64,000 nucleotides of DNA from a virus. The first letter of the stretch is position 1, and each line of letters begins with the position of its first letter. A program made the translations under genes and the position numbers. Below, piece after piece: positions 10,701 through 32,204 of the stretch. The stretch is from positions 7,834 to 71,833 of IMG/VR virus record IMGVR_UViG_3300046820_000297, one strand, 5' to 3'. The notes below the pieces were generated by a model. That model saw nothing but the letters and a program-made list of their open reading frames with translations. It made no database searches and was not told the origin of the DNA.

Positions 10701-13700
10701 TCAAAAGATTCTAGAATTCATTGATGCTACAGATGATAGCTTCTTTGATCTTACTGGTAAGCGTTTGTTTAAACCAGCTATTGAAGATATCGGTGAGAAG
10801 TTATATAGAGAAGGTACAGACATATTTGAAAATACAGAGTCAGGTACATTTGTTACTCAGGTTGTATCAGAAAGACAAGAGTCTGATAAAAGATCGTTTA
10901 CTGATATAGCGAAACAATTTGGATTTGATAGAAGTGCTCCTATAACAGAAGTCACTATCGGATCTATATTAACGTCTATCATAAATGGTCCCGGAACAGT
11001 ACAACAAAAAGAACTAGCACGACTATTAAAATCTTTGCTAGACGGAAACGAGAAGATATCCTTTGTAAGAAACCACTATACTAACTCTACATACGATCCT
11101 AAGAATGGTGTTATTGTAGATGCTCGTTATAGTTCTGAAGATTACAAAGTATTAGGAATGGATAAAGTATCAATTGAATACTCCATTCTTAGTGGATTGA
11201 TGCAGAAGCTTGTAGTTGATAAGAGTGCCGATAAAGAATTTACTGATAAGATAAAAGACATCCGTGAGTCTTTCATGAAGGAACTAAGCGACCAACAGAA
11301 GAATTCATACGCTTACGCATTAGCTAACAATACTACGTTCTTATCTGAGATGCTTACTAATCCAACCTTTGCTGCATTAGCTACTCAGTATGAGTATAAA
11401 GGTACTCAGGTAGAACTAACAGATAAAGCAAAGAATATATTCGGAGCGTTCTTCAAAACACTTACTGATTTCATCAAGAAGATCTTAAACATTAACAATG
11501 AAGAAAGATCTGTATACAAACAAGCACTTAATGTTCTAGCTAATAAGTTGACAGAAGGTCCTACTGAAGAAGCTGGTAAAAAAGAAGAAGGACCGGATAC
11601 ATCTGGTATCAAAGAGTTCTCTAGTTTAGATCCTAAGTTACAAGAAGAACTTAAGGAAGCATTTGAGAAGAAGAGAACTAAAGTTGCAGCAACAGATCCC
11701 GAGGTAGCAAAGAACATGGACTTTAACATGTGGTACCTAAATGATTTTGAAGCAACACGTATCGTATCTAATTATAATACTAAGAAGAAAGTAAAAGAGG
11801 AAGAGGAGAAAGGAAAAGCTACAGAAGGTAATACTGTTATTACTATGGCTAACATTCCTCAACTTGCAACTGCTTTAGGTTACACTGTTGCGGAGATTAA
11901 CTCTATGATTTTAGATGGTACTCCTACACAAGAGTTACTTGACATTATCAACAATAAAGTAGTATCTCCTAATGCAGCAGTACTTAGTGAAGAAGGTATG
12001 GAAGCCATCAACGCTGCTATAACAGATGCAAAAGATAAACTAACCGCAGCAAAATTAAGACTCACTGAAGATGCAAAGAATTATATAGATGATGATGGTA
12101 CAATTTATACACGTGTAACAAGTCTTGTAAAAGATCCATTTGAAGCTGATTCTCAGACGGCATCGTTTAGAGGAACTATTATAGATGATCTTACTAGAGA
12201 TTTCTTAGCTGGTCGTATTCAAAACATTGAAGAATTCAAAGATGCATATAAAATCTCTAGAGATAAGATATCTTCAAAAGAAGGATTCAGTGATAAGGAT
12301 GCAGCAGAGTTACCAATCTTTACAGCAAACTTCTTAAATGAACTATTTGACAATCTTAGAAATGTAAAGCGTGCTCTAGATAGAAATGGTATCAAGGTCA
12401 TTTCTGATATCCCAACACTCTATGGAAAGTTAGATGGTAAAGATGCTGCAGGATCTATTGACTTACTAGGATATAATAGTAAGGGTGAAGTATTCATTAT
12501 TGACTTAAAGACAGCATCAGGAGACAGAAATGTTCAGTATGCTTTAGAAGAAGCAATGCAAGATGCATTAGGTGAAGACTATGCTGAATTCAAATCAACT
12601 CTTAAGAAAAATAAAAATTATTTAGAAGCTACTCGCAGCATGCTTCCTTTAGAAATGCAAAACAAAATGACTATTGCATTTACTAAGTTTGGAAACAAAT
12701 ATCCCGAGCTAAAAGAAGAGATGCAGAAAGGTAGACTCTTTTTATATAAAGAAGGAGACCAAGCACAGTTAGCTGCATATCGCGAACTACTTAGACAATC
12801 TACAGGTATTGTTGCTGATAAGTTATACATCTTCCCGATGGTAGCATCTACTGAAAAAGGTTCGTCTATTAAGTTTGTTAGAAACACAATGGTGAAAGCA
12901 CCAGGTAGAACTGGTTATGTCATTGATCTAACTACTAACGATACTACATATAAGATATCTGATCTAAGACAAACAGTATTTGAATATCCTGAGAATCCTA
13001 TTCAGAAACCAGGTGCGCCAGTTACTGAAGAACCAGAAGTAATTGAAGTTAGTTTAAAACCTATTGAAGTTACTACTGAAGAACCTATTACTCAAACTGG
13101 TACAGATGCTAAAGTTGATGTAAAAAAAGATAGATACTACAACAGTCCTGTAAACAGGATGGTTAAAGTACAAAAGGATTCTGAAAATACACCAATAACA
13201 AAAGAAGAAGAAGAAGAAATAGAAGCTGTTATAGAAAAAGCTAAAGAACTTGGATGGGACAAAAATAGATTATTTAGACAACTTAGTTCAATGGGGTACG
13301 CTTATGCTTTTGGAGTTCAGCCTGAAGGATATAGAAATTATCTTGAAGATAGACTTTCTGGTAAGACAAATATAAAAGTAACATCTGAGTTTAACTTTTT
13401 TGAACAACTTGATAAAGAACTAGCAGCTTTAGAAGGTGCTCAAACTAATGAACAGACTGAAGAAGAAACTCCCAAACAAGTAACCAAAGTAGCTATAATA
13501 AACAATAGTGATATTTGGTCATACACTGATGGTACATATACTGTATTACATCGTGAAGACGGTGTGATTGGAGAATACATTAGTGATTTAGCATCTGCTA
13601 AAAAGATTGCTAGAGAGTACAAAGAAGAAAGCGATTACGATGCTACCAAGAAGAGAGCAAAAGCAATGGTCATTGGTAAGAGAGTAGTCGAAGCAATGTG

Positions 13701-15582
13701 GGATCCTGAGAAGATGATGTGGAGATATTTTAATAAGAACACTAAAGAAGAATACAGCTTTAAGAACTCATTAAAATTTGGAAAGCGTTTGTTCAGAGAT
13801 AACAGAGGTTGGTTTAGAACTTGGTGGAATCAAATCTTAGATGATACACAAAGATCTGAATTTGCTAATCTATACGGTAAGGTTAGAGACTTTATCTATC
13901 AAAATGAAGATGGTGGAGTAGATCCAATGACCTTAGAGTATGTTATGATGGTAAACTTACAAGGTGTTAAGTTTAGAAAATCTAAGGAGCTTACTTGGGC
14001 GACAGATGTTAGTGAGAAAGTATGGTTCTCTGATTCAGGAAGAAACTGGGATCAGTTTGTAATGGCGTTAAAGAATAGTGAAGATCTTACACAGTCTGGA
14101 ATCATTAATGAAACTACTGAAGAGTCAGAACTTCGTGATATGATTATCGACATCATGATGCGTAATCCTAATGGAGTTACTAAGAAAGCAGTAGAAGCAT
14201 TAGCTAAAGAGATTAGTTCTGAAGGAAGAATTCAAACTGAAAAAGACGACTTCTTTGACAAGACCGGTATTGACTTTGATGATTTTGAAGAGATATACGA
14301 ATCTTTGGGAGCTACTAAAGATATTATTTACATCGATCCTTATACTGGTGATAAAACTGAAGTAGAAGATAAGTTCGGTAGCAAAAGAAGTATGCCTGTT
14401 AAGTATGACTTACTAGCTAATCAGTACAGAGGAAAGGTTATATACATAACAACCGATTCATCTATCCAAGAAGATTTAGAAAAACTTGGAAGCTACGTTG
14501 AAAGCGGTAACTACTTTATAAACTTAGTAGTTGATAAATATAAGAAGCAACTTGAGGATCTTGCAAAAACATTAATAGATCAAGCTCGTAATTCAGATGA
14601 AGATAAAATAGCAAATGGTTTAGTTAAAGCTCTAAAAAATACAGAAGACGATAGTAAATATATAATGTATTGGTTAAGTGCTGCTGCTAAAGGTAATGAG
14701 AAAGCTAAGTCATTAATGGATACTATATACTTAGAAGCATTAACAGATGCTAGAAAGTATGTAGGGACTGACGCAAGAACTGTAGTATTTGATAACGCTA
14801 ATGCATTGTCATATTACCAAATGTTTGATACAATTATCGTAAATGAATTATCTGACATAAAGAGAGATGCTAAAACAGATAGTATTGATAAAGCTGAACA
14901 AGCTGTTCCGAAAGATAAGAAGGTACGATTAGCTGCAACAGATGGGCTTGATATTCTAAAAGGTGTTACTCAAAGAAGCTTTGTAATGAATATTAAAAAG
15001 CGTATTGGTGATATTACTACTAAACGAGATCATTTACTAATGCGTATGGAGTTAAATAATGCAACAACATTAGGTACTCTTGATATAGCGCTTAGAGAAG
15101 AAGGTCTTACTTTAGAAGAAGTTCAAAGTTTACTAGCACAAAAAGCACAAGAAGTTGTTAATCAGTTGAGTATCAAAGATATAAAGTTTGGTGGTAAGAC
15201 ACCTACATTATATGAGTACAATGATAATGGTACAACTCTAATATTAATGGCTCGTTCAAAATTAGCTAATGGAGTAGCATTTGATGATGTAACTGACATT
15301 TACAATAACATGGAAAATGCTACTGAGTTAGATTTGAAAAAGACCACGAAATTTCGTAATTTAGCAGAAGAGGAAATAAACTTAAATCTTCGTCCAATGG
15401 ATATCGAAAAAACAGCTACAACACCATCAGCATCTACACAAACTAAGTCAGATTCTGCACAAACAAAAATTAAAAATGATGCTGCAGATAGAGTTGCTGC
15501 CTTGAGAGCTAAGAAAGATACCATGGATGAACAATCTACGGACGATAGTTTAGATGATTTATTCAACTGTCCCATTAAATAA
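7753..15582 (+). CDS. Giant virion cargo protein (2609 aa) with an internal PD-(D/E)xK nuclease-like domain
   Basis: GSIDLLGYNSKGEVFIIDLKT...QLAAY motif at ~12450-12780 and a degenerate zincin-like segment at ~11090-11490. Its position before the vRNAP matches crAss-like gene order. Confidence 0.7.
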   Translation: MENSINITPTPSGKPATADLYKYSVGNAIEGVDPLPTPRTSEEAKKKALADIDKAFLNASRPDAFKFDKPTTFNAGSKGYNFDRYYTHPKFKQLGFTPLRDNESFYNQHSSTWDDLGRAVKQMPALVGLGASSTFGNWSNFLSMKPDTENAEEMERRMSIASSSRDTFGGKAVNFLSNVPYTLGVIGEIYAEEAALMLASRIPGMQGLAAAKTGQNILRGGLAFERLFNTFRAGNKIDNAKQAWDASKTLGNFAKNWLPFQNTADLFRDSGRAAANMDKLTDLAAGYKTFGAFYRDLREINLVTAEAKLEGGFVQNDVANTLIGDFRKKNGRDPNDMESEAIYAQARKAGYTAGFLNTGGIYISNKVVLERALKGLPFIDEVEHLAGKGIKNGKLVKNLDWKTSGKNPWEVISGVGSGVKALGNKYYRQQLVKNAPKNGMRFLSANVMEGIQEMYQEGTAKGVSDYYTQTYLNPSKVGKAQVLSSLQTGVKSQLSGEGLEVFLSGFLMAGPIQAVQSSVHGVYNMGQLARLKMQDKAFKADPANAGKTSPYEKYLKDQKTYNEKVVSALNFLTKDTKSYFSTVDANVKAQKDFADLFESAVLEGDVKGAVDANDDALANHIFTLIESGHLDLFTEHLEGLKQLDEKELADALYENPGNKTFDKKTTSERIDAVIGRINQIKDTHNKYQSLSNPFDFRQDPIGYFSFESARKLAIFNDFSYQRTGERMTSILEKLKTNTALSNVDYMDIATMFSINPKLMGNNLGIGGATNMLALLKQEIDNLKAGTDEQKDEAVKLQNKYDKLKSLSTLIQDYAANLDTLESAPAEQQEELANSVEESEKLLGQAFNDYIKLLAKNNGTTILDKDINDAFSDFRDYWRLGRDKTQFAEAVNALNNPGYFSEVARRINGALEVASQVSAQRAKEEVDEYRRRYATNDFLNGLLSQFNVYVHEDEAEAYLANNIVPEKFVDADTGQVISPSDSRYQKILEFIDATDDSFFDLTGKRLFKPAIEDIGEKLYREGTDIFENTESGTFVTQVVSERQESDKRSFTDIAKQFGFDRSAPITEVTIGSILTSIINGPGTVQQKELARLLKSLLDGNEKISFVRNHYTNSTYDPKNGVIVDARYSSEDYKVLGMDKVSIEYSILSGLMQKLVVDKSADKEFTDKIKDIRESFMKELSDQQKNSYAYALANNTTFLSEMLTNPTFAALATQYEYKGTQVELTDKAKNIFGAFFKTLTDFIKKILNINNEERSVYKQALNVLANKLTEGPTEEAGKKEEGPDTSGIKEFSSLDPKLQEELKEAFEKKRTKVAATDPEVAKNMDFNMWYLNDFEATRIVSNYNTKKKVKEEEEKGKATEGNTVITMANIPQLATALGYTVAEINSMILDGTPTQELLDIINNKVVSPNAAVLSEEGMEAINAAITDAKDKLTAAKLRLTEDAKNYIDDDGTIYTRVTSLVKDPFEADSQTASFRGTIIDDLTRDFLAGRIQNIEEFKDAYKISRDKISSKEGFSDKDAAELPIFTANFLNELFDNLRNVKRALDRNGIKVISDIPTLYGKLDGKDAAGSIDLLGYNSKGEVFIIDLKTASGDRNVQYALEEAMQDALGEDYAEFKSTLKKNKNYLEATRSMLPLEMQNKMTIAFTKFGNKYPELKEEMQKGRLFLYKEGDQAQLAAYRELLRQSTGIVADKLYIFPMVASTEKGSSIKFVRNTMVKAPGRTGYVIDLTTNDTTYKISDLRQTVFEYPENPIQKPGAPVTEEPEVIEVSLKPIEVTTEEPITQTGTDAKVDVKKDRYYNSPVNRMVKVQKDSENTPITKEEEEEIEAVIEKAKELGWDKNRLFRQLSSMGYAYAFGVQPEGYRNYLEDRLSGKTNIKVTSEFNFFEQLDKELAALEGAQTNEQTEEETPKQVTKVAIINNSDIWSYTDGTYTVLHREDGVIGEYISDLASAKKIAREYKEESDYDATKKRAKAMVIGKRVVEAMWDPEKMMWRYFNKNTKEEYSFKNSLKFGKRLFRDNRGWFRTWWNQILDDTQRSEFANLYGKVRDFIYQNEDGGVDPMTLEYVMMVNLQGVKFRKSKELTWATDVSEKVWFSDSGRNWDQFVMALKNSEDLTQSGIINETTEESELRDMIIDIMMRNPNGVTKKAVEALAKEISSEGRIQTEKDDFFDKTGIDFDDFEEIYESLGATKDIIYIDPYTGDKTEVEDKFGSKRSMPVKYDLLANQYRGKVIYITTDSSIQEDLEKLGSYVESGNYFINLVVDKYKKQLEDLAKTLIDQARNSDEDKIANGLVKALKNTEDDSKYIMYWLSAAAKGNEKAKSLMDTIYLEALTDARKYVGTDARTVVFDNANALSYYQMFDTIIVNELSDIKRDAKTDSIDKAEQAVPKDKKVRLAATDGLDILKGVTQRSFVMNIKKRIGDITTKRDHLLMRMELNNATTLGTLDIALREEGLTLEEVQSLLAQKAQEVVNQLSIKDIKFGGKTPTLYEYNDNGTTLILMARSKLANGVAFDDVTDIYNNMENATELDLKKTTKFRNLAEEEINLNLRPMDIEKTATTPSASTQTKSDSAQTKIKNDAADRVAALRAKKDTMDEQSTDDSLDDLFNCPIK

Positions 15583-15592
15583 TTAATAAGAG

Positions 15593-18500
15593 ATGATCTG
15601 CGATTCTTCAAGTAACTGGTCACTAGAGAAAAGTGATATTGATAAATTAGAAACTGCTATTTACAAACTCCTTTCTGACAAAGCTAACGCTCCTGAGAGC
15701 GACTTTGTCATGTCTAAATTTCTAGGATACCTATACAATAGAGCATTACAAGGATACGGAGATAACGATAAAGCATTGACTTTACTACGTGCTGTACCTG
15801 AGACTATGAAAATAGTTATTACAGCATTTGATGAGTTGAGTGATAAACTTATGTCTAAGAAAGTACCATTAGACATGAACACGTTGTTCAAACTATCTAA
15901 TAGTTTTAATGCCGATATCAATAACGTCAAAGAGTATGTAAATAAGAACTTAGCAAAAGCTACTATAGTTACATCTCAATCAGCAAACGAAGACGCAAAG
16001 AAAGCACAGACTCCTCCTCAATCTGATGGAACAGTACTTGGTGAATTCCAAGCATTACCGTCAAATCCATTCACGTCTACAGGAAATGAAACTGAAGAAA
16101 TGACATGGTATTATGACTTTCTAAAGACATTAGATAAGAGAATGATGGATCTAGGTGGTCCTGATAAAGATGGTGGTGTAGATTTTAATGGCAGAAAAGT
16201 ATACGTATCAATGGTATTAGGAAGTAATATTCCTGAGAACCAGTTGTATGAAAGCACTAGACAAGATGCTAACTTGATGAAAGCTAGCGGTAGTACAATG
16301 TATATCATGTTTACAGATGCGTCAGGTAATCCTTCATACTTCTCAGATACATACGGAAATGCTACAAGCGAAGATGGTAAACTTATCTATTTTCCACAAA
16401 GAGCTATTCCTACAAGTACAAAAGATAAACAAGGTAATCTAGTATTTGATCTTGAGAGTATTGGTGGAAGAACTTTACAATCAGTTGGTTACGCTGCTAG
16501 AGTAGAACGTAGTACTAATGAAGCCATAGCGTATAGATATAATAATGCTTTTGCTAAATTAAAGCAATTACAAGATTATCTAAGAAGTAATCCTACGGCT
16601 TCTGTTAGATTAGACATCGATAATATCAGCAGAGGTTTCATGAACTTACAAAGTCCTGAGACAACACGTGTTGTAGATGTAAAAAACATTACAGCATTTA
16701 CTCCAGTGATTTCTGGAAATAAGAAATTAATAAATGTACCCGGGGTGTTACAACCTATCGAGTTCTTTATGGCGCCTTACTCTGAAGAGATGGCAAGTAA
16801 AGTTGCTGACTTACTATTGAATGAGGTTATCTATAATAATAAAGTAATGACTCCTAAGAATAAGTTTAATCTTATTGCGGACTTTACTCAATTCGGTACA
16901 ACATCAGATAGCTTTAGATACGATACAGAAACCGGAACAATATTCTTAGGAACAGAAGCTTTAGATACTACAGATAAGAATACAGCAAAACAAAGAATTG
17001 TAGAATTCTTAACTAGAGAATTTGAAAACAAGAACGTAAAGAACGCTAAAGGAGAGTTTGTAAAGCAGAAGAATCAGTTCTTCTATAACAATAAAAAAGC
17101 TACTGGTAACTTTATTGACTTCACATTAGCTGCAAATACATCAGGAGCATTTGACATGTCTATCTCAACAAGACCTTACTTAGATTGGGTTAAAGAGAAT
17201 GCTATGGTAAGTGTTGAATTGAAGAGCGGTGAGATCCGTCAAGTAAATGGATACGTTGAGTTTAATATGGGTGTGGATGCTATGAGAATTCTAGCAACAC
17301 AACCATTTAATGAGATTGTTAAAACCACCGGTGAAGAAGGATATAGTAAATTAAATCCTACTAAAACTATTACAGGTAATGTAAAGAAAGTTGGTTGGAA
17401 AGCTGTGCTATCTAAAGCAACAGAAGTTTATCCTACTACAAAGGATGGAGACTTTCAAGTTGTTTCTACAAGAATACCAGGAACAAATCAACACTTCGGT
17501 AATCCTTTCTCATCTACTGAGTCTGTTATAAAGAAGAACAAAGATCTTATTAAAGTAGATGATACAGTAGCAGCTGTAAAATCATATATAGATTGGGTTA
17601 CTAATACAAACTTTGACTACAGTAATTCAGGAAAGACAGAAGCAGAAGTAGAATTATTAAAAGAGAGAGCACACTGGATTAGAAAAGAATTAATGTCTGG
17701 TAGACTCAAAGGTAAAGATATCCTTTACTATATAGAATTAAAAGAACCTGCTCACTCTAATGCATTAGATTACTTAATCAATGACTTTAATTGGGGTGCT
17801 TTTGAATTTGAACAAACTAAGAAAGCTCAAAAGAAAGCAGCGCCTGAGAATATAGTACCATCTAACTTACCTACTAACAGTGATGTTGTTGCTAATAAGT
17901 CTAAAGACTTTGACTTCGGTGCTTACAAAAGACGCGGTCAAGGAGAGATTGATGCAACACCATCTCAGATTATAAAAGCTGCAGCATGGTACGATAATCT
18001 TAAAATAAAATTTAAGGACGCTAGTGGTAATATCATAGAGAAGAACATGAAGGATGTAATTCCTTATCATGTTATGTTTAGAATTGCAAATAGCAATGGT
18101 GATGTAAGAGCTCGTTGGACTCGTTCTGGTATTAATCTATATGAAGGATCTGACTATTCAGATCTTTACCATGAAGCATGGCACGGATTTACACAGTGGT
18201 TCCTTACAACAGATGAGAAACTAAAACTTTATGACTCTGTAAAGAACTCCGGAGAAAGAATTAAGTATTATGATGATACTACTAACTCTTGGAAGTCTAT
18301 GTCAGCATCTGATTTAGATTTCTCTATAAAGAATCATAAGCTATATGCAGAAGAATTCTTAGCAGAGAAGTTTAGAGAGTTTGCTTTGAATAACGGTAAG
18401 TTCCCAAAAGAACAACCTGTTGCAGTAAAGAGTATCTTCAGAAGAATCTGGGACGCATTGAAAGCTCTATTTGGATTTGCATCTAAAGAGAGTATGCTTA

Positions 18501-21500
18501 CTCCTATATCTGAGAGTAATATTGCTGAAGTATTTGAGAAACTATATGTAGGAGATTTATCTGACTACACCATGGATTCAGCAAACATTGACTTTGATGT
18601 TCTTAATAGTGGTATCACAGCAACTTCAGATCAGTATCAAGACCTAAATATCACAGACTCTATTCTATTAGCGGATTCACTAAATAGTATTATATCTGAA
18701 TTAGTAGACAGTAGTGGTACAGCAAAAGCTACAGCTGCATTGTTTAATAACACAGCGTATAAGAAAGCTTTGTTAGAAGATGCTAGAGAAGCATTACTTA
18801 ATAGATTGAAAGCTGTCATAAAAGAGTATGACGAGACTGAAGATAGTTTCTTAAAAGAACAGCTTGATAAGAACATGCAGTTATTAAACTACGCGTATAA
18901 TAACTTCGGTAATATTGAAAATCTATCAGGCGGATTAATTGACTACTTTAACAAACGCTACGGATTGTTTGATATGACTATGCAGTCTAAAGCAATTGAT
19001 AGAGAGTTTAATATAGGTAATCAAACCGACGCTGTAAATACACAAGACGGTGTATCCGATAGAGAAGGATTGATGGCTGGTTCTGGTGTAGAATACGGAA
19101 CTATTGAGAGAATGGATGATGGTGTAATGTTCTTGTTAAGTACATTATTTGAAAAAGAAAATGGTCAGTTTACATATAACAAATTAGGATTTAAGAAAAC
19201 AACACCTTTTAGAAGAGCTTATAGTGCAGTATCTACTGCTACAGAAAACGCATATACTCGTATCAAGATGATAGAGAATATGGATCTTGCTTCTAAGATG
19301 TTATTAGACAGTGGTAAAGTTGATGATAGATATACTGTTATTCAACAACTACTTGCTAAGTTAGGTCCTTTAGATAGTACTGATATTAGTAATCAATCTT
19401 TGTGGAATAGTTTCTTCCACAGCTTCCGTTTCGATAAGTTATCCGGTAACCAAGTTACTGTAGAGTATAACGAGAATGGTGGAGGAGTTAGCATCAAAGT
19501 TGGTAAATCAGATGGTGCTGATAAACTAACTGGTAGAAATCTAGAGACTGGATTTGAAGTAAATAAAACTAAATCCACCTTCTTAAAAAAGAATAAGGAT
19601 GGTATATATACTCTTGATCTAGAAGGAGTACTTAGAAAGTATCCAACTTCTGTAATGGCATTGAATAAACCTATTGAATTCTTAAGAGACTTAGGTTTAG
19701 ATATTACAGAGAACTTAAAGATCAAGAGACAGTTGGCTGACAGAAATGTTGTGTCTAACATTTATAAGATTATAGTTTCATCTGGTGACAAGAATAGAAT
19801 TATCACAGGATTAAAAAACAAAGGTGCTGCTAGTTTATTTGATGATCAAGGTACCTTGTGGAATAGTCTTTTGCAAATACAATCTAGATACTCAGGTACT
19901 GTAAACGATTACATGATTAAGAATGCTAAAGGGGATTCTCAATCAGAGATGTCTAATCCAAGTACAGCGGGTAACTTACTTAATAGAATTAATGATGCGG
20001 TTGATAGTATAGACGGCAAGCACGCTGCATTTGATCGTATGATTAATTCTCCTGAGATGTCTCACTACAATCCTGAAAGAAATCCATTTGTTAAGTCATC
20101 TGTGATTTTTAAGAGAATGTTTGGTCCAGACTTATCTAAGCGTCAAGTAAGAAATGGTATTCCTTTTATGCTAGAGTATAGATCTCAATTAGGTACTCAG
20201 GTTCTTGAAAAAGAAATCGATCAACTTGTTGAGTCTACAACTCTTTTGTCTGGATTGAAGTCATCTGACTCAGATTTTCAAACTGCATTCTTACGTGACT
20301 TCTTTACAATTAACTTGCAAGGATTTGCGGAGGCATACAAACACGCTGATAAAACACAAGCATTTATTGTAGCTCTTACAAATAACGGTAACCCATCGTT
20401 CTATGTACATCCTAAAGAGTTTGCAAACGTTAATGGTTCAATCCTAGCTAATGATATTATCATTGATTATATCGGATCCGAGTTAGAGAGAATTAAGAAA
20501 GTAATAAACTTTAGCGGAACTGGTACCAGACCTGAAGATATTATTCTATGGTATGATAAGAAAGGTAACCCTGTAACATATAAAAACACAGGTAGCACCT
20601 TTACAATCTTTGATGATATACTCTTAGAGGATACTAAGAACATGTTGATTGGTGAAGAGTCTATAACAGACTTAGAGTCTTTTAAGAACTTCTTAGCATC
20701 TAATGCTATGGTGAAAGATCAGATCCTTCAGCAGTTAAATGACTACTTCGCAGATCAAGTTACAAAGCATAAAGAAATTCTATCAGCGTTTCCTGTGTTA
20801 CAAAGACCGAGTGTTTATTCATCCTTTTTAAGCAACGTAGCTCAGAACTTAAAAAACCAACCTTCATCAGTAGTATTCGAAACAGCAGTCAAGTCAATGG
20901 TGTATAACAGTTTCATTCACAAGTTTGAAATGAATACACTTGTATATGGTGATGCTGCTCAGAATAATCACGATAAGGAAGAACACATGAAGCGTATTCC
21001 TGGATTCTTTGCATCAGGTAGAATACCTGTAGCAGATGTATTCATGGATAGAATGTTTGCTCAAAAAGGTGGACGTTATCATTTGTCACCTTGGTTTACA
21101 AACTCAGGACTAGAAGCACCTAAAGATCCTTTATCAAGTCAAACTTCTATTCTTAAGACAGCTGTGTTCAAAGATGTGTTTACAGATTCTGTATACTATG
21201 AAGAAATGATGAATGTCTTAGATGAATATAATAAGACAGCTGCTGTACCTATTCCAAAAGAAGCATATGATGCGTATAAGAACATGAAGGTAGCGGATGC
21301 GCAAGCATGGATGACCTTTGATGCATATAGAGCTTTGGAAATCAGATTAGATAACTGGAGTCCTCAGAAAGAAGAGTTGTATAATAAAATCATAAATGGA
21401 GAGAACGTAGATATTGCAGAGACACTGCAGTTCTTCCCAGTTAAAAAATTACAATACTCAGGTCCATTACAAATTTCAAACTTTACAGCAAATGCTTTCC

Positions 21501-24500
21501 ATAAGTATTCTGTAATGCCATTGATACCAAATGTCATAAAAGGTAGAAGACTTGAGTCGCTACATAATCAATTAGTATCTCAAGGATATGCTTACGGTGT
21601 AATGCATTCTGGTTCTAAGATTGCTAGTATTGGTAAGGATGGTGATCTTATTCCATTCTATAAGAACGATGAGTTTGATCCTGCATTTACAGAAGAAGGT
21701 TATGAGTTTGTATCAAATACAATTTTCTTAGATTATCTTAAAGAACAGTTGGTTACAAAGGATAAGTTTAAGAAGAATGTAAAGTTCCCAACTCAGTTAA
21801 GAAAGTTAGTTACATCTGGATTAAAAGAGTTCGGTGTACCTACAGACTTTGAACCAAAACTAACTGAGTCTGAAAGAATCAAAAAATGGGGAGAGCTTTC
21901 CGAAAAACAAAAGATTGCTCAATCAGGATTCTATGAATTAGAAAAAGCATATCTTAATCACATAGCTAAGATCACTACTATAGCGGAGAATAAACTCAAG
22001 AGAGAGTTAGGTTTCCATAATGGTAAGATCAATATGAAGCGCCTTATTGAGTATGTAAAAGAAAGTTTGACTGCTCAAGATTTACCAGAACAAACAATTG
22101 AATCCATTAAAGTAGATGCTAATGGTAAGTTGAATGTTCCTTTAGACATATCTACAGATCCTGCTAAGATTGAATCTTTAATTACTGCATTGGTTAATAA
22201 GAGAATTATTGACCAGATGAGTAAGGGTGAACAATACATCCAAGGTTCTGGTGTCGGATTTGAGAAATTCTCTAAACCAACTGAAGATGATTTAAAGAAG
22301 TATGGTTCTGATGGATTACCTTTCTATAAGTATAATCCTAACAAACCTACTTCAGCAATGAAGGTTAAGATTGCTTTACACGGAGACTTTAAGAAATTAC
22401 TAGATGTAAAACATAATGACGGTAAACCTATAAAGACTTTAGATCGTTTGAATGAAATGATCCAGAACGATCAATGGTTAGATACTGGAGAGAACAGAAA
22501 GATGATCACCTTATTTGGTGTTCGTATTCCTACCCAAGGAGCAAACTCTTTGGACTTTATGGAAGTATACGAGTTCTTACCAGAAGCTGCCGGTAACATT
22601 ATGATCTTACCATTAGAAGTTGTAGCTAAGTCAGGTGGTGACTTTGATATCGACAAGCTTGTTACAATTGTACCAAGTCTTAGTTATAACGAACGCTCTG
22701 TAGAATTAACTAAAGCGGTTAAGACTAAAAAGTCTGAAGCTACATTAGAAACAGAGAAAGAAAAACTTAAAGAAGAGTTTGATGTTATTGATGAAAAGTA
22801 CGATGATCTTCTAGCAGAACTTCCTCAAAAAGAAGAGATTAAAAATCTAATTGCTGAGAAGAAAGAACTTGTAGCTCAGAGAAAAGTATTAGCTGGTAAA
22901 CTTAGAAAAGCTTTAGAAGAACAAGAGCAGAGAGTTAAAGAAGGAAAGAGCATCAAGGGTAATCAGAAATACATTGATAAAAAGAGACAGGAGTTAGAAG
23001 AGATCAATAATAAAATCGAACCTATCCAAAATACAATCAATACTGAATATAACAGAAGAGATGAGGATAGAGGACTAAATGAAGCTAGAGAATCTGAGAT
23101 CAAAGATGTTATTGAAAAGATCAGAGATATCAATAGACAAATTGAATCTTACAATACCAATGCTGAAACAAATCTTTTGTTGAGCACAATGGTAAGTATT
23201 GTAAGTAGACCTGATAACTACATCAATCTTACAAGACCCAACGGAACTACAATCTTTACTGAAGATGAAGAAGACCGTGGTGTTAGCATTAAAGATGAGT
23301 TTGGTAAGTACAATAGAAAGTCATTTAAGACTAGTACTAATAGCTCTCGTAAATTTTCTCCAACAAGGATTATGGAGAACGGATACAACATATCAAAAGC
23401 AATTTCATTGAGCGCTGGTAAAGATGGTATTGGAATGATTGCTACAGGTAATACCTTCTCTAACTTATACAGATCAGTTGGTATGTATTTATCAAGTGAG
23501 TATACTGGTAAGAAAGGAGAAGCACTTTACCAGAAGTTATTCTTAGAGCACAACAAAATCGGAGATAGTATTTCTTTGTCACATTTGATGACGGCAGATA
23601 AGAAGAGATATATTTCCGATGTTATATCTGAGTTGATGAACGGATACCTAGACGTTGCTAAAGACGACTGGGTTTATGACATCAATGCTATTAAAGAGTT
23701 TGAACCTGAGTTTGAATTAATGATTCTAGCAGGTGTTCCTGTTAGACAAATTGTATTGTTCTTATCTCAACCTAAAGTAAGACAATACCTAGAAAGAGTA
23801 AGACAGTATGGAAGTCCATACGCTGGTTTGACTGGCGGTGAATACGTTAATCCAAACTTTGCAAAGTACACAGCTCTTTTAGATACACTTGATCCTGCTG
23901 TTGTTTCTGGAACTGGAAAGAAGCGTCCTTCAGTAGAAGCTCTTGTAGCATCAATTCAGAAAAGAAGAGGTGAGCGACAAGTTAGTTTTGATACAGATGC
24001 TTTATATAAGAACCTATCTGGTAAGGGTAATACTGCATTAGATAATGATATCTTCGAACACTTCGTTGAGATTCAGTTAATGAGTAAAGCTAACTCTGAA
24101 GTCAAGCGTAGTTTGAACTTTGATACAGACAAAGCAAGAACTTACTTTGAAGCTGTAGCTAAACAACAAGGTAGTCATGGTGTATCAGCTAAGGTACCTA
24201 AAGAAATGGTTACTAAATTGTTGGATGCTAATCAAAGTGTTTTGGGTTCGTTTATGAAACAAGACTTGATTCGTCAAGCACTCTCTGCAGTATTACCATT
24301 AAGATCAGCTAAGTATCTAAACGATTACTTACTTGAGCACTTGGATGCTCTTGATATAGATATGGATCAAGAAGAGAAATACGTTAGCGGATTTGTATCA
24401 GACTTGAACCAATACATCTTCGAGAACTTCCTATATAGATTTAATACTAATGATACTGAATATAGATCGAATGATATTAAAGTAGAATTAGAACAACAAG

Positions 24501-26185
24501 ACTTATTGAAGTTTGGTGCTGTATTAATGCCTAGTGAAGTAGTTGATGAAGAGACCGGAGAAGTACGTTTAGCAATCACAGACACTGACAAGTTACTAGT
24601 AGATAAGAAATCTATAAAAGAACAATACGATCTTAGATTATTTACAGGTAATGAGAACAAGTCTAGTAAGAAAGCTGAAATTCTTTCTGCTAGATCTCCT
24701 TACAATCCTAAGAATCAATTACTTGCACCGCTACCTGAAACAACATTCAGCTCGTATGGTGAGAGAGGATTTGAGTTGTTCTATAAGTTTGTCTTAGAAA
24801 GAGAGACTCTAAGAGCATTGATGCCTTATCAAGAGGTGGTTCAGTCTAAGGAGTTCATAGAATTCCTAAAGATGATCAATAACAATACTAATTTACCAAT
24901 GCGTTACGAAGAATTCTTGCGTAACAAAGCATTGGATAACTTGTATATTGATAGCAGCATCTTTGCAGGTGAGAACAAACAGAATCTTGTAGGTTCTCAT
25001 GCTAAGTTCGAACACTTTGTTACAGAGTATCCAGAACTTATAACTAACTATCCAGTTCTTGAAATGCTTGTTCGTAAGGTACAAGGAAACAAAACATTCT
25101 TTAAGCTACTTACACAAGAGAAAGACGGACAAGTTCTTACTTCTTACAAGGATCAAATGCTACAGTTAGCAGATCCAGGTGTTAGCAAAGTAAAGGATAA
25201 AGAACTTAATAGAGTAATTAGTGCGTTCTTTGAAAAATTACCAACCGTTGGATTTATTCAAGGAGGTAACAATACTCGTTCAGGTTTGTATGTGATGAGT
25301 CTATTTACTATGGATAACATTGCACCATTTATTGCAAACAATATTCAGCAGTATGTAGATGTATTTAACAAAGATGCGGTGAAAACAGAATCTATTCTTA
25401 AGAAGTTTTCTAAGAAATACGATGTTAAGTTTTCAACCGGTCGCGATACCTATAGTGCATACTTAGCAGATAGTCCTCAGAGTGTTTTCAATATAGAGCA
25501 AGTAAGCAAAGATGTTGTAAAGGAACAGCAATTTGACTATGTCAATATGGAGACTGGTGAATTGGAACCGGTTAAAGTATACGATGAGAACTTGATGACA
25601 ATGACATCCGTAGAGTTTGATACTATAGCTGCTGAGAATCCAGACAGCATATTTGTATTTGACGATCAGTATCCTATTGGAGGTAAACCAAACAAGACAC
25701 CGACAAACGGTTCTAGAAAAGTAATGAGAAAAGGTCTTGATACAAACAAGAGCTTTGGAATATACTTACAACAACCAAGTGGTCAGAATCCAAATGTTGA
25801 TGAATTTGAGAAATACAAAGAGATCTTAGATCAACAATTAGATGAGCTATTAAGAAGAAAGAACTCTGGAAGTACTATCGTGTTCCCATCAAAAGGAGTG
25901 GGTATAGAACTATTAGGATTTGTACCTAGCGGAACTACCTACTTAGAGAACAAACAGTTAAAAAGAAACAGCAATCTGTACGTATATTTGTCTAAGAGAC
26001 TTCTCAAAGATTTTGGTTATGTCAATCCTATGTTCGATCTTGTAAGTAAAGGTTTCTCAACCGAACTACTAGAAGGAGCTGAAACAGGTTTGGATTATAT
26101 CCAGAATAGATTGATGGAAGCAGGTGTAAAGCAGAAAGTTTCTGACAGTACGGTATTAGAATATATTAAAAATTGTAAAGGTTAA
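15593..26185 (+). CDS. Virion-packaged DNA-dependent RNA polymerase (crAss-like, double-psi beta-barrel type; 3530 aa)
   Basis: Catalytic DxDxD motif GGDFDIDKL at 22640-22654, preceded by RIPTQG. Also has TQLRKL, NGYLDVAKD and an N-terminal zincin motif HEAWH (18170-18184). Confidence 0.9.
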   Translation: MICDSSSNWSLEKSDIDKLETAIYKLLSDKANAPESDFVMSKFLGYLYNRALQGYGDNDKALTLLRAVPETMKIVITAFDELSDKLMSKKVPLDMNTLFKLSNSFNADINNVKEYVNKNLAKATIVTSQSANEDAKKAQTPPQSDGTVLGEFQALPSNPFTSTGNETEEMTWYYDFLKTLDKRMMDLGGPDKDGGVDFNGRKVYVSMVLGSNIPENQLYESTRQDANLMKASGSTMYIMFTDASGNPSYFSDTYGNATSEDGKLIYFPQRAIPTSTKDKQGNLVFDLESIGGRTLQSVGYAARVERSTNEAIAYRYNNAFAKLKQLQDYLRSNPTASVRLDIDNISRGFMNLQSPETTRVVDVKNITAFTPVISGNKKLINVPGVLQPIEFFMAPYSEEMASKVADLLLNEVIYNNKVMTPKNKFNLIADFTQFGTTSDSFRYDTETGTIFLGTEALDTTDKNTAKQRIVEFLTREFENKNVKNAKGEFVKQKNQFFYNNKKATGNFIDFTLAANTSGAFDMSISTRPYLDWVKENAMVSVELKSGEIRQVNGYVEFNMGVDAMRILATQPFNEIVKTTGEEGYSKLNPTKTITGNVKKVGWKAVLSKATEVYPTTKDGDFQVVSTRIPGTNQHFGNPFSSTESVIKKNKDLIKVDDTVAAVKSYIDWVTNTNFDYSNSGKTEAEVELLKERAHWIRKELMSGRLKGKDILYYIELKEPAHSNALDYLINDFNWGAFEFEQTKKAQKKAAPENIVPSNLPTNSDVVANKSKDFDFGAYKRRGQGEIDATPSQIIKAAAWYDNLKIKFKDASGNIIEKNMKDVIPYHVMFRIANSNGDVRARWTRSGINLYEGSDYSDLYHEAWHGFTQWFLTTDEKLKLYDSVKNSGERIKYYDDTTNSWKSMSASDLDFSIKNHKLYAEEFLAEKFREFALNNGKFPKEQPVAVKSIFRRIWDALKALFGFASKESMLTPISESNIAEVFEKLYVGDLSDYTMDSANIDFDVLNSGITATSDQYQDLNITDSILLADSLNSIISELVDSSGTAKATAALFNNTAYKKALLEDAREALLNRLKAVIKEYDETEDSFLKEQLDKNMQLLNYAYNNFGNIENLSGGLIDYFNKRYGLFDMTMQSKAIDREFNIGNQTDAVNTQDGVSDREGLMAGSGVEYGTIERMDDGVMFLLSTLFEKENGQFTYNKLGFKKTTPFRRAYSAVSTATENAYTRIKMIENMDLASKMLLDSGKVDDRYTVIQQLLAKLGPLDSTDISNQSLWNSFFHSFRFDKLSGNQVTVEYNENGGGVSIKVGKSDGADKLTGRNLETGFEVNKTKSTFLKKNKDGIYTLDLEGVLRKYPTSVMALNKPIEFLRDLGLDITENLKIKRQLADRNVVSNIYKIIVSSGDKNRIITGLKNKGAASLFDDQGTLWNSLLQIQSRYSGTVNDYMIKNAKGDSQSEMSNPSTAGNLLNRINDAVDSIDGKHAAFDRMINSPEMSHYNPERNPFVKSSVIFKRMFGPDLSKRQVRNGIPFMLEYRSQLGTQVLEKEIDQLVESTTLLSGLKSSDSDFQTAFLRDFFTINLQGFAEAYKHADKTQAFIVALTNNGNPSFYVHPKEFANVNGSILANDIIIDYIGSELERIKKVINFSGTGTRPEDIILWYDKKGNPVTYKNTGSTFTIFDDILLEDTKNMLIGEESITDLESFKNFLASNAMVKDQILQQLNDYFADQVTKHKEILSAFPVLQRPSVYSSFLSNVAQNLKNQPSSVVFETAVKSMVYNSFIHKFEMNTLVYGDAAQNNHDKEEHMKRIPGFFASGRIPVADVFMDRMFAQKGGRYHLSPWFTNSGLEAPKDPLSSQTSILKTAVFKDVFTDSVYYEEMMNVLDEYNKTAAVPIPKEAYDAYKNMKVADAQAWMTFDAYRALEIRLDNWSPQKEELYNKIINGENVDIAETLQFFPVKKLQYSGPLQISNFTANAFHKYSVMPLIPNVIKGRRLESLHNQLVSQGYAYGVMHSGSKIASIGKDGDLIPFYKNDEFDPAFTEEGYEFVSNTIFLDYLKEQLVTKDKFKKNVKFPTQLRKLVTSGLKEFGVPTDFEPKLTESERIKKWGELSEKQKIAQSGFYELEKAYLNHIAKITTIAENKLKRELGFHNGKINMKRLIEYVKESLTAQDLPEQTIESIKVDANGKLNVPLDISTDPAKIESLITALVNKRIIDQMSKGEQYIQGSGVGFEKFSKPTEDDLKKYGSDGLPFYKYNPNKPTSAMKVKIALHGDFKKLLDVKHNDGKPIKTLDRLNEMIQNDQWLDTGENRKMITLFGVRIPTQGANSLDFMEVYEFLPEAAGNIMILPLEVVAKSGGDFDIDKLVTIVPSLSYNERSVELTKAVKTKKSEATLETEKEKLKEEFDVIDEKYDDLLAELPQKEEIKNLIAEKKELVAQRKVLAGKLRKALEEQEQRVKEGKSIKGNQKYIDKKRQELEEINNKIEPIQNTINTEYNRRDEDRGLNEARESEIKDVIEKIRDINRQIESYNTNAETNLLLSTMVSIVSRPDNYINLTRPNGTTIFTEDEEDRGVSIKDEFGKYNRKSFKTSTNSSRKFSPTRIMENGYNISKAISLSAGKDGIGMIATGNTFSNLYRSVGMYLSSEYTGKKGEALYQKLFLEHNKIGDSISLSHLMTADKKRYISDVISELMNGYLDVAKDDWVYDINAIKEFEPEFELMILAGVPVRQIVLFLSQPKVRQYLERVRQYGSPYAGLTGGEYVNPNFAKYTALLDTLDPAVVSGTGKKRPSVEALVASIQKRRGERQVSFDTDALYKNLSGKGNTALDNDIFEHFVEIQLMSKANSEVKRSLNFDTDKARTYFEAVAKQQGSHGVSAKVPKEMVTKLLDANQSVLGSFMKQDLIRQALSAVLPLRSAKYLNDYLLEHLDALDIDMDQEEKYVSGFVSDLNQYIFENFLYRFNTNDTEYRSNDIKVELEQQDLLKFGAVLMPSEVVDEETGEVRLAITDTDKLLVDKKSIKEQYDLRLFTGNENKSSKKAEILSARSPYNPKNQLLAPLPETTFSSYGERGFELFYKFVLERETLRALMPYQEVVQSKEFIEFLKMINNNTNLPMRYEEFLRNKALDNLYIDSSIFAGENKQNLVGSHAKFEHFVTEYPELITNYPVLEMLVRKVQGNKTFFKLLTQEKDGQVLTSYKDQMLQLADPGVSKVKDKELNRVISAFFEKLPTVGFIQGGNNTRSGLYVMSLFTMDNIAPFIANNIQQYVDVFNKDAVKTESILKKFSKKYDVKFSTGRDTYSAYLADSPQSVFNIEQVSKDVVKEQQFDYVNMETGELEPVKVYDENLMTMTSVEFDTIAAENPDSIFVFDDQYPIGGKPNKTPTNGSRKVMRKGLDTNKSFGIYLQQPSGQNPNVDEFEKYKEILDQQLDELLRRKNSGSTIVFPSKGVGIELLGFVPSGTTYLENKQLKRNSNLYVYLSKRLLKDFGYVNPMFDLVSKGFSTELLEGAETGLDYIQNRLMEAGVKQKVSDSTVLEYIKNCKG

Positions 26186-26189
26186 TAGA

Positions 26190-29100
26190 ATGAACGCATG
26201 CGCTTTTGGTCCTGAGAAGGATGCACTAAACGAATCGATAAAGATATTTGGAGAATTCATAGCTAACAAAGATTATCTAGAATATGGACGTGTTCGTTCT
26301 GCAGAAGAAATCCAAGCGTCTCTCAAACTAGAAGGTAAGATCTTAGAACAAGATCCTAATTTCATAAGAGTTTCTGAGACAGTAGAAGACAATCTTAAAG
26401 ATCTTACTGTGTTTCCAGGATTTGATGCAATGCTTACAGGTATTGAAGTTGACACAGCAGGTATTAGTGTAAACAGATCTAATGCTATTGTAGACTTTAT
26501 GGTCAGAAGTTTCTCTGATCGTCTTGGTATTCCTTATGAGTTTGTATCAAGAGGTGAAGCATTTGAGATCTTAAAGCAAGCAGGTAAAGCGTATACACAA
26601 GAATCAGGATTCTTTATTGGTGGTAAGGTATATCTCATTAGAGAAGACCTTAGTTTAGATACAGCAATGCATGAATTTGCACATCCGTTTGTGAGAGCGA
26701 TTCAAAAAGAGAATCCAGAATTATTTGAGAAGTTATATAATGATCTAATCAATACAGATACCGGTCGTAAGATGGTATCATTAGTATCTATCTTAGAAGA
26801 TAAACTTACTCCTGATCAAGATTTATTCAAGGAAGAAGTGATGGTTCGTGCGTTGTCTAAACACGCGTATGATAAAGTAAATCAGAAACCAGAAGACACT
26901 TCATTCTTTAACGCAATTAAGAATTTCTTATATCATCTAAAGCAGTTATTAAGAAAGTATCTAGGTAAAACATTTGATGTATCTAAGCTTGATAGCACTA
27001 CAACACTTGACGAGTTATCAGAGATATTCTTAGCTGCTAAAATAGATTTCCAAACAGAGTCTGTAAATCAAGCAGACATTGTAGCGTTTAAAAAGGACAT
27101 TAACAATCTTGTTGATGAGCTTACTAATATAATGGAGAATGACTCCGGTGCAAAAGCTGTAAGCAAAGCTATCAACGATGTCTACAGAGTTGCAATGAAT
27201 CATAAAGAGCGTCTTGAGGTAAACAAAAACCTTAGAGATATGGCGGAACTTCTCAAAGGAGAGTTCGATGATTCTACATATAAGCTTATCATTAATAACC
27301 TAAGAGACTACGAGAGTCTTATCACAGATAAGTTTGCAGAACTCGTAGAGAAATATCAGTATAATCATGATAAAGCTACTGCATATATTGAGAGCTTGTA
27401 TCAGATTAAACACATGGCTAGGTTGATGGTAGCTCATATGAATGAGATACGTAATCAACCACAGACACCGGATATCACAAAACAATTCTTTTACTATAGA
27501 CAATTAGCGACTGATTGGTCAAACACTATTGCTACAGCAAGAGAATTACTTTCTGAAGAAGGATTAGAGAGCGGAGAACTAGTAGACTTGATTGCTAGTA
27601 TTGAAGGTTATGTAAAAACCGCAATCAGTATTGATGATAAATTCAGTGTACGTTCTGCAACAGAACTCCTTACTGATGTCTTAGAACCATTAGCTCAAGA
27701 AGTAGAGAGGTATTACAATGATATCATCGATGAACTTGTTGCAAAAGGTGCGTCCGAACAAAAAATCGAGCGCTATAGAAAAGAATTTAAAGACACAATT
27801 CTAGATAAGGATGCTCTAAAGGAGTGGTTAACCGGACAAAGAACAGATACAAATGTGCTTAGTGCATGGATGGAATCTTATATGAATATTCAAGACCCGG
27901 TTGTATTCGGTCTTGCTCAATTCATCAACAATAATATTTCTGATGTACTTACTATTAGTCAACAAAGACATAATAAGTTTGCTACAGAGTTTGAACCGTT
28001 GCTGAAAGCTGCAGGTATTGATATTAAAAATCTAAAAGCATTACGTGATGCAGTTACTTATATAGAAGCTGACGGTATCTATAATGAGAAGGGTGAGTAT
28101 GTAAGAAGAGAAAGATATGCATTCAAGAACCACTTGAAAGAATACAGATACGAGATTGGTAAACTAAACGATGAGATTAGAAAAGCTGAGATTACTGCAC
28201 AGGAGACTGGTGATAGCACTGAGCTTGATAAACTTAAAGTTGAAAGAGAGAAATTATTAAATGAACACTTCTATGATTCTAAAGCTGATATCGTAAAGCA
28301 AGCTGAAAGAAGATTAATTCGTGATGAGATTGGTGAGAAAGCATACAATGCAAGAGATCTTGTGCTTAGAAAGATTAAGAGTTTGGATTTGGGAATAACC
28401 GATCCAGATGAACTAGTAGATAAAGATAGACTTGCTATTCTAGATTCTCTATGGAGAGAGTATAATTTGCTGTTCTCTTTAAGTTATGCTGACGGTACCA
28501 AAAAGGATCCGTCTTCTGACGATTATAAAATCGCTGTTAGATTACGTGAGTATAGAGAAGAGACAAAAGAATTCTATGAGTGGGTTCCTGTAAAGAACAT
28601 GTTCTCTAGAGCACTAGCTTCTTACGAACAACAGTTGAGAGACAATGGTATTAGCGGTGGTGAGTTTATTAAAATGCGCGCTGATTGGATTAAAAACAAT
28701 ACTCGTGTAAAAATTAAACCTGAATTCTGGCAAGAAGTAAATAATATCTTAGAAGAGATTAGATCTTTAAAACCAGACATCCCCGAGAATCTTAGAAACA
28801 AATTAGATCTTGATGAACTCTATGCTGAGATTAGTGATCAGATAAGCGCTTTCCGAGATGACGACGGTCAACCAGATGGTTTGATCATGTCTGAAGAAAA
28901 GAAGAAAGCAATCAAAGAGTTAGATAAGAAGATCGAGAAGTCTAGAAAGACAATCACCGGTCTAATGGGATTGAGTGAAGAGGAACAAAATGAATATGAA
29001 TACATCTCAGGATTATTACTATTAAACGGAGATAACTTAAGACAATGGGCGGATGAGAATCCTGATTTAATAAATAGATATGAGTACTTACAAAATCTAA

Positions 29101-31787: not shown

Positions 31788-32204
31788 ATGGCATTTGTAG
31801 ACATCTTTAATTTTAAAAAGTATATCACTAAACCTAGTGATGCAACAACAGCACGTATCGGACACGTAAACGCTTTATACGATGCTTTAGCAAATTCTGA
31901 TTCAGCAATAACAAAAAACACTTATCTCTTAGCAACTGGAGAAACTGATGTTACTATAAACACTAAGTCAGGAGTAATAGATATTGAAGATGATGTTCCT
32001 GGATTAGACACAGTTACTTTTAATATTATATCTGATGATATAACAGGAGACAATCCTTGTGTAATATTAATTACACCAATTTGTGATGAGGGATTTAATT
32101 TTGGTTTACGTTATGTATTAAGCGAAGGAGAAGCTAATATAACAATTTATAATAGAAACGCTCCTAACGCAACACTTGTAAAATTACATTTTTTAATTAT
32201 CTAA
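31788..32204 (+). CDS. Small putative structural protein, paralog A
   Basis: Shares its first ~31 aa with the next ORF, has a beta-rich C-terminus and ends LHFLII. Confidence 0.6.
   Translation: MAFVDIFNFKKYITKPSDATTARIGHVNALYDALANSDSAITKNTYLLATGETDVTINTKSGVIDIEDDVPGLDTVTFNIISDDITGDNPCVILITPICDEGFNFGLRYVLSEGEANITIYNRNAPNATLVKLHFLII

Follow-up and report, generated by a model that had tools for sequence, protein, structure and literature searches.

Paired terminal cysteines suggest a head-to-tail disulfide chain among the giant cargo proteins of crAss-like phages

In the human gut, no phages are more abundant than those of the order Crassvirales. How a giant RNA polymerase (RNAP) and its partner proteins are stored, ordered and passed through a phage tail is an open question in the structural papers on phages crAss001 and N4 (PMC10172136, PMC13434306; here and below, statements about publications refer to those parts of their text that were available). 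The described arrangement closest to the one reported here comes from another phage family. The pre-ejectosome of cyanopodophage A4 (Anabaena phage A-4L, Saffermanviridae), solved by cryo-electron microscopy (cryo-EM), contains a disulfide that ties gp27, through its Cys1715, to Cys5 of gp26 (PNAS 2025, PMC12002296). In the A-4L record, gp27 (1717 amino acids, aa) and gp26 (1114 aa) are encoded by adjacent genes and are otherwise free of cysteine (Cys). Consecutive genes for probable ejection proteins with lone Cys at the facing C and N termini are likewise found in a 64,000-nucleotide (nt) stretch of viral DNA, hereafter the window, which comprises bases 7834-71833 of the IMG/VR record IMGVR_UViG_3300046820_000297 (71.8 kb, estimated 59% complete). 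There, three abutting genes encode giant proteins, here called A, B and C, that are most likely the packaged and ejected cargo of a crAss-like phage; B is a homologue of the virion RNAP.

No detectable sequence similarity relates the A4 proteins to A, B or C, the lowest blastp value being E 0.55; they are an analogue rather than an established homologue. A4 has one link and no RNAP, whereas a crassvirus chain would have two to five links. In its description the A4 link staples a folded ring of five-fold symmetry; neither a thread nor an order-wide rule is invoked, and the available account mentions neither Cys depletion nor gene fusions and splits (PMC12002296). Nearer relatives are gp67-gp66-gp65 of phage phi14:2 and gp47-gp50-gp49 of crAss001, which include homologues of B and C and follow the same terminal-Cys rule; they differ in that the break between A and B lies on the other side of a zincin-like domain and, in crAss001, in that gene A is inverted. 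The available texts on phi14:2 and crAss001 mention neither cysteine nor disulfide for these cargo proteins (bioRxiv 10.1101/2020.03.07.982082; PMC10172136). Phage N4 (Schitoviridae) resembles the present case in that a giant virion RNAP is ejected with partners through a narrow tail and is thought to pass unfolded (PMC13434306). Not one Cys occurs in its gp50 (the virion RNAP, 3500 aa), gp51 (644 aa) and gp52 (150 aa), 4,294 residues in all (NC_008720), an absence of which no mention was found in the available N4 text (PMC13434306). Unlike the proteins described here, those of N4 have no terminal Cys, and so no covalent coupling, and one polypeptide carries what crassviruses spread over three. 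The N4 RNAP is of the single-subunit type, with a fold unrelated to that of B. In AB-type translocated toxins, a single inter-chain disulfide keeps the cargo chain attached to its partner while it crosses a narrow channel, and the reducing cytosol of the target then cuts the bond; these are unrelated proteins in another setting, with no head-to-tail multi-protein chain, and serve as an analogy only. Effector domains co-delivered with invading DNA, zincin-like peptidase and ART-PolyVal among them, are known from polyvalent proteins (Iyer et al. 2017, PMC5512222), but there the domains are peptide-linked and proposed to be freed by proteolysis, whereas the separate chains here would be freed by reduction; the available text of that paper has no mention of cysteine or disulfide.

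Cys were counted by script over 31 open reading frames (ORFs) of the window, which is AT-rich (35% GC). Protein starts were set at the first ATG past the upstream stop (1-10 codons on), so the N termini are predicted ones. An earlier note on this DNA had reported, from a manual scan, only four Cys in the ~7990 residues of A, B and C. The recount gave 4 in 7,989 aa with no scattered extras, at exactly the codons that had been named (15568, 15599, 26174 and 26199). All lie within four residues of a terminus facing the neighbouring gene product (A -4, B +3, B -3 and C +4, where plus and minus count from the N and C termini; residues 2606, 3/3528 and 4), and the outer ends are free of Cys, again as had been claimed. 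The summed mass, put at ~900 kDa in that note, computes to 905 kDa. The genes abut, with gaps of 10 nt (A-B) and 4 nt (B-C). Window ORFs other than those for cargo mostly contain 0.5-2.4% Cys, and minus-strand ORFs adjoining the chain in related loci contain 1.33% (308 of 23,210 residues). At 1.33%, ~106 Cys would be expected in A, B and C together, for which the Poisson probability of four or fewer is ~5e-40; the probability that all four fall within four residues of facing termini is ~9e-12. The earlier judgement that the pattern is hard to ascribe to chance is upheld by both figures. The features are collected in Table 1.

Table 1. Genes, cysteine codons and motifs of the cargo region, in window coordinates
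Feature	Position	Strand	Description
Gene A	7753..15582	+	2609 aa, 293 kDa; giant protein, most likely cargo; single Cys
A Cys2606 codon TGT	15568..15570	+	4th residue from C terminus, ...FNCPIK*
Gene B	15593..26185	+	3530 aa, 400 kDa; virion RNA polymerase homologue; Cys only at 3 and 3528
B Cys3 codon TGC	15599..15601	+	MICD...; C3 column invariant in alignment A1
B HEAWH zincin-like motif	18170..18184	+	residues 860-864
B DFDID metal-binding motif, two-barrel RNAP	22640..22654	+	residues 2350-2354
B Cys3528 codon TGT	26174..26176	+	3rd residue from C terminus, ...KNCKG*
Gene C	26190..31742	+	1850 aa, 212 kDa; giant protein, most likely cargo; HEFAH at residue 161; single Cys
C Cys4 codon TGC	26199..26201	+	MNAC...
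Three Cys-poor ORFs upstream of A	3-1970 (5'-open), 1977-4538, 4563-7763	+	

Pfam and PHROG searches returned a family match for none of A, B and C, and neither megablast of the region nor tblastn of the first 1469 aa of B matched the phage collection. The core of B alone did match, with phi14:2 g066 at E 8e-16 and 120 phage records in total, mostly Crassvirales. The blastp comparison of B with phi14:2 gp66 gave E 9e-19, and the sequence GGDFDIDK (residues 2348-2355 of B) is invariant in four orthologues; a DFDxD-type motif has been described for gp66 (Drobysheva preprint, bioRxiv 10.1101/2020.03.07.982082). The motif and the two matches bear out the earlier designation of the middle protein as the virion RNAP. 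A hidden Markov model (HMM) of the C orthologues matched crAss001 gp49 (1e-34) and phi14:2 g065 (4.8e-22). A gave a weak blastp match to crAss001 gp47 (E 0.001), and its position and size are consistent with gp47/gp67; an HMM of the A orthologues matched none of the reference proteins. The HMM of B missed FpV4 and p-crAssphage, both of which were found by blastp and tblastn, and phmmer of B against PDB sequences gave no match. Because the phi14:2 and crAss001 counterparts were found in virions by mass spectrometry, and gp66 is delivered into the host, where it transcribes early genes (bioRxiv 10.1101/2020.03.07.982082; PMC10172136), A, B and C are most likely packaged and ejected cargo.

Among thirteen named crAss-like phages, all 16 junctions between chain proteins obeyed the terminal-Cys rule. 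The terminal Cys are gp67[-1]/gp66[3,-2]/gp65[3] in phi14:2 and gp47[-3]/gp50[5,-9]/gp49[5] in crAss001. Several genomes provide natural experiments in which the polypeptide ends have changed. A and B are fused in cr1_1, cr6_1, cr118_1, cr130_1, cr4_1, cr108_1 and FpV4, giving proteins of 4,287-5,801 aa (~3,765 aa in cr108_1, joined across an intron); the fusion was shown by blastp or HMM for cr1_1 and cr108_1 and deduced from size and motif positions for the others. None of the seven fusions has an N-terminal Cys, and all retain the Cys pair of the B-C junction. Conversely, B and C are fused in p-crAssphage, jaberico and cr11_1 (with blastp proof for p-crAssphage); a C-terminal Cys is found in 0/3, while the Cys at the C terminus of A and the N terminus of B are retained. 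The jaberico fusion has no Cys near the former junction.

Insertions behave in the complementary way. Extra proteins stand between B and C in L006 (754 aa), L013 (574), L029 (328), L049 (1146 + 89), L100 (655) and L146 (950), and an insert of ~250 aa occurs there in six loci. Every extra chain protein (89-1146 aa) has exactly two Cys, one per end. Inserts of L029 (17992-18978) and L049 (17565-21005) contain an ART-PolyVal ADP-ribosyltransferase domain (PF18760; E 1e-10 and 5e-7), so the chain can carry add-on effector modules. The sole nonconforming insert, a 215-aa ORF of L049 (20999-21646), was rejected as a counterexample, being a GIY-YIG/NUMOD3 homing endonuclease.

The position of the A/B break also moves. 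The HExxH motif lies in B in the window (residue 860) and in A in crAss001 (gp47, 2157) and p-crAssphage (gp45, 1743), and homology between this part of B and the C-terminal region of A in those two phages was linked via cr1_1 gp076. Cys flank the break on either side of the zincin domain, though the break positions are non-homologous. The rule is kept even where gene A and genes B and C occupy opposite strands, as in crAss001 and DAC15, which excludes an artefact of the DNA junction. In cr108_1 (NC_055878), a group I intron (RF00028, 80 bits; L056 17790-18108) interrupts the B gene within GSD|FDIDK; the profile match continues across this break, which has no flanking Cys. Collectively, the fusions, inserts, moved break, inversion and intron show that the Cys track, pairwise, the ends of polypeptide chains and neither junctions in the DNA nor homologous sites. 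As to annotation, the cr108_1 record lists the two exons of the virion RNAP as separate hypothetical proteins. The giant cargo genes of cr6_1 (L062), cr130_1 (L065) and cr4_1 (L066), in which the rule is also kept, contain 18-74 in-frame stops under table 11, in line with the known recoding of stop codons by some crAss-like phages of the gut.

Conservation was then measured in uncultivated relatives. IMG/VR was searched with B and then with a four-orthologue alignment of B, which yielded 51 loci of 23-74% identity; with the window, the 52 loci form 35 clusters at 90% identity. Excluded were L004 (part of the record from which the window comes), the 215-aa ORF of L049 and an L051 upstream ORF that is not A. 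Cys were present on both sides at 71/71 protein junctions. The N-side Cys was always at position 3-6, and the C-side Cys lay 1-10 residues from the end at 68 junctions and at 18, 19 or 27 in three; all 33 C termini of A carried one. Among the 253,574 residues of the chain proteins, 142 Cys were terminal and 18 internal, and the rule was kept down to 23% identity. The outer ends were different: no Cys occurred in the first 30 residues of 28 complete A N termini, or in the last 30 residues of the upstream neighbour of A in 27 loci. That the C terminus of C is free of Cys (0/31) follows partly from the chain-end rule of the script; the independent check is given by the ORFs following C on the plus strand, of which 1/19 had a Cys among residues 1-8; this ORF, of 80 aa, lies 1 kb downstream in L025. 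Cys was the sole invariant column in alignments of 25 B C termini (A2) and 25 C N termini (A3). Around it, C-P-N-x-N-x-P-E-W recurs at N termini and S/T-D-x-x-V-x-D-F-M-x-x-C at B C termini, where an Asp 10 residues ahead of the Cys is nearly invariant.

A second set, obtained with a different query (a representative of the B homologues), added 80 IMG/VR loci. Nine loci on first-set contigs were excluded, as was L133 (a truncated ORF without the RNAP motif), and the junction count omits ORFs past C in L089 and L144 and a fusion in L146. In the 52 new clusters, both Cys were present at 97 of 98 junctions, with 13 internal Cys per 344,514 residues. At the sole miss, in L115, the reading frame shifts within an A10 run close to the B start (6554-6760), possibly through an assembly error, and the ORF in front begins MVNC; this poly-A frameshift removes L115 as a counterexample. 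With both sets pooled, the C-side and N-side Cys match at 168/169 junctions. In a separate, profile-free search, the B core was compared with 1.84 billion representatives and 2,566 homologues were found. Among the best 150 of these, 122 have both terminal Cys, or 123 with P0103, which was dismissed as an exception since its Cys is at residue 9; the 150 contain 55 internal Cys in 524,215 residues. When 17 nonconforming representatives were aligned to full-length homologues, most were found to begin or end at internal positions, two to begin ~22 residues late, and three to be long and A+B-fusion-like; most of the 17 look like fragments. A search for related loci with P0145 as query found no relative.

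These observations suggest that A, B and C are probably joined into a chain by head-to-tail inter-protein disulfides. A would be bonded through its C-terminal Cys to the N-terminal Cys of B, and B in the same manner to C, giving in the particle a single linear thread of ~905 kDa with uniform N-to-C polarity, in keeping with the proposal that crAss001 gp45 is ejected N-to-C. Because the Cys lie 1-10 residues from the chain end, each join would leave a mere short side stub. The purging of other Cys would prevent wrong disulfides and leave the proteins unfoldable and threadable through the tail, and the links would be cut after delivery by the reducing cytoplasm of the host. Inter-subunit disulfides are present in the tail and portal vertex of crAss001 virions (PMC10172136). 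In the gp66 crystal, grown in dithiothreitol (DTT) and tris(2-carboxyethyl)phosphine, the only untraced parts are the termini that bear its two Cys (Drobysheva preprint). We infer that the links may serve co-delivery or ejection order, and not merely the stapling of a folded cargo assembly as in A4; stoichiometric co-packaging is another possible purpose. A wider scheme of modular redox coupling is possible, if doubtful: proteins tagged with N- and C-terminal Cys would be hitched into a covalent train, threaded N-to-C as a near-megadalton polymer and uncoupled by host thiol systems, so that gene order would encode delivery order. Breakpoints would move freely under such a scheme because a peptide bond and a terminal disulfide would be interchangeable. 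In the loci seen, such a train would comprise two to six polypeptides, including the RNAP, ADP-ribosyltransferase effectors and an 89-aa mini-protein.

The earlier note had predicted that a fusion should remove the junction Cys and a split create them, which was found in every clear case, and that the Cys should be conserved in orthologues, which the 71/71 and 97/98 junctions confirm. Its head-to-tail disulfide fares well as to the pairing, which the comparison of fusions and splits and the A4 bond both favour, and for crassviruses it stays a deduction from sequence and analogy; the fixed stoichiometry, ejection order and release by reduction that the note proposed are conjecture. Its statement that no such mechanism had been described needs correction, since the A4 gp27-gp26 bond (PMC12002296) is a precedent; for Crassvirales, full-text literature searches, together with searches within the available main texts of PMC10172136, the Drobysheva preprint, PMC13434306 and PMC5512222, found no account of a terminal-Cys chain. 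What is new is thus an order-wide, multi-link terminal-Cys rule, and what was known is one solved link of this kind in another phage family. A two-residue sequence rule across an order is a concrete and cheaply testable hypothesis. If true, it would account for the free fusion and splitting of the three genes and for the near-total lack of Cys in the ejected proteins; it would provide a sequence-only means to recognise ejected cargo, including new effectors, and would suggest a natural design for redox-released protein delivery.

Several observations weigh against the disulfide chain or fit it poorly. The A4 bond was seen in the particle (PMC12002296), whereas the crassvirus links are predicted from sequences. 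Three lineages have the Cys of A as far as 18-27 residues from the end, and among the best 150 of the 2,566 B homologues 23 have a C-terminal Cys alone, 4 an N-terminal Cys alone and 1 neither. Gut lineages hold internal Cys, 90 in 69,257 residues (0.13%) and up to 32 in cr130_1 (0.41%), compared with 0.004-0.01% in the uncultivated sets and 0/5,398 residues in the marine phage phi14:2. A possible relic of the junction is Cys2220, an internal residue that lies within NCP close to the fusion point in the B+C protein of p-crAssphage. Orphan terminal Cys, with no evident partner on the adjacent protein, occur in p-crAssphage gp47 at -2, its only Cys (L054 3546-6119), in jaberico gene 49 at -11 (L061 2719-4992), in FpV4 gp30 at +5 (L058 4123-5919) and in the protein upstream of A in L103 at -13 (1-1716). 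In L096, A is split into 1613 and 789 aa by a frame change (5289-5298) with no Cys at the break; because a 94%-identical relative has A whole and L096 is short of ~70 residues there, this break is by comparison either a recent lesion or a fault of assembly. In DTT, recombinant gp66 shows activity in vitro on its own (Drobysheva preprint, bioRxiv 10.1101/2020.03.07.982082), so the links would be dispensable for catalysis. Models for thioredoxin, glutaredoxin and Erv1/Alr matched nothing in the 59%-complete phage record, and the Erv model matched no control genome either, which makes its null uninformative. Since the host cytoplasm is reducing and no oxidase or thioredoxin was matched, the bonds would most likely form by oxidation within the finished particle. 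A complex prediction for the C-terminal 150 aa of B with the N-terminal 150 aa of C (score 0.12, mark 0.32) speaks neither for nor against binding.

The terminal Cys might instead bond elsewhere, in homodimers (A-A, C-C or B-B), in a cyclised B, or as tethers to the portal, the inner capsid or other cargo. The many inter-subunit disulfides among tail, ring and portal-vertex proteins of crAss001 would be in keeping with this, as would the orphan Cys in other cargo-like proteins, and the partners of the terminal Cys are themselves deduced from sequence alone. Such bonding is unlikely, however, given that the numbers of C-side and N-side Cys match per junction (168/169), that an A+B fusion loses exactly the C-terminal Cys of A and the N-terminal Cys of B while a B+C fusion loses the C-terminal Cys of B, that inserts always add one Cys of each kind, and that the free outer ends have none; in A4, moreover, the pairing is that of an upstream C terminus with a downstream N terminus. 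It is very unlikely that the Cys belong to terminal tags read by packaging, processing or ejection machinery, with no covalent link between cargo proteins. Motifs do recur around the Cys at N termini and B C termini, zincin-like protease motifs are present in the cargo proteins, and polyvalent proteins have been proposed to be processed by such domains (PMC5512222). A signal of this sort, though, need not vanish pairwise at fusions or be missing from the first N terminus and the last C terminus; the residues next to the Cys vary while the Cys alone is invariant; and the ~100-fold or greater purge of other Cys would be left unexplained.

The earlier note had also raised shared metal sites; a facing pair might hold a bridging ion together with further ligands, or be linked in some other way than by a disulfide. 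Thiolates of two chains can share a metal, and the nearly invariant Asp before the B C-terminal Cys might be read in this way, but each terminus has one conserved Cys and no conserved His or Cys co-ligand, Cys being the sole invariant column, and its offset from the end ranges over 1-10 residues. As the sole solved case of the signature is a disulfide (A4), a metal site is highly improbable. An origin in chance, composition or a Cys-encoding DNA-level signal at the junction, such as translational coupling, has next to no probability and is already refuted. Although the genes abut and the genome is AT-rich, the probabilities for depletion and placement given above are minute, the rule is kept with A on the other strand away from B and down to 23% identity, and no Cys is found at the intron break, where the protein is continuous. 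Two further candidates were ruled out. A split intein has a half of tens of residues between its catalytic Cys and the chain end, for which Cys 1-10 residues from the C terminus and 3-6 from the N terminus leave no room. Bacterial lipoproteins have a signal peptide of ~15-25 residues before the lipobox Cys, and no hydrophobic leader precedes the present Cys, which occupies position 3-6. Head-to-tail disulfides linking A, B and C thus remain the probable reading.

The three ORFs upstream of A probably encode further cargo proteins. They are free of Cys or have only the close pair C128/C134, and none has a terminal Cys facing A. The pair belongs to the 4563-7763 protein (also G000:C1:4139-7237, locus L067) and is found as 128/134, 128/133 or 128/131 in many relatives and is missing in others. 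A 1032-aa protein farther upstream has Cys only at C331/C341, and crAss001 gp45 only at C390/C398. Such close pairs in upstream proteins may form small intramolecular loops or inter-subunit links. Thioredoxin-like proteins are encoded near the cargo block in p-crAssphage (L054 28936-29214 and 29934-30203), cr108_1 (L056 29067-29336) and jaberico (L061 28009-28284); that they are linked to the redox chemistry of the cargo is only a thought. Downstream, a 138-aa ORF (31788-32204, starting MAFVDIFNFK) directly follows C and is conserved at that place in loci L001, L002, L003 and L024.

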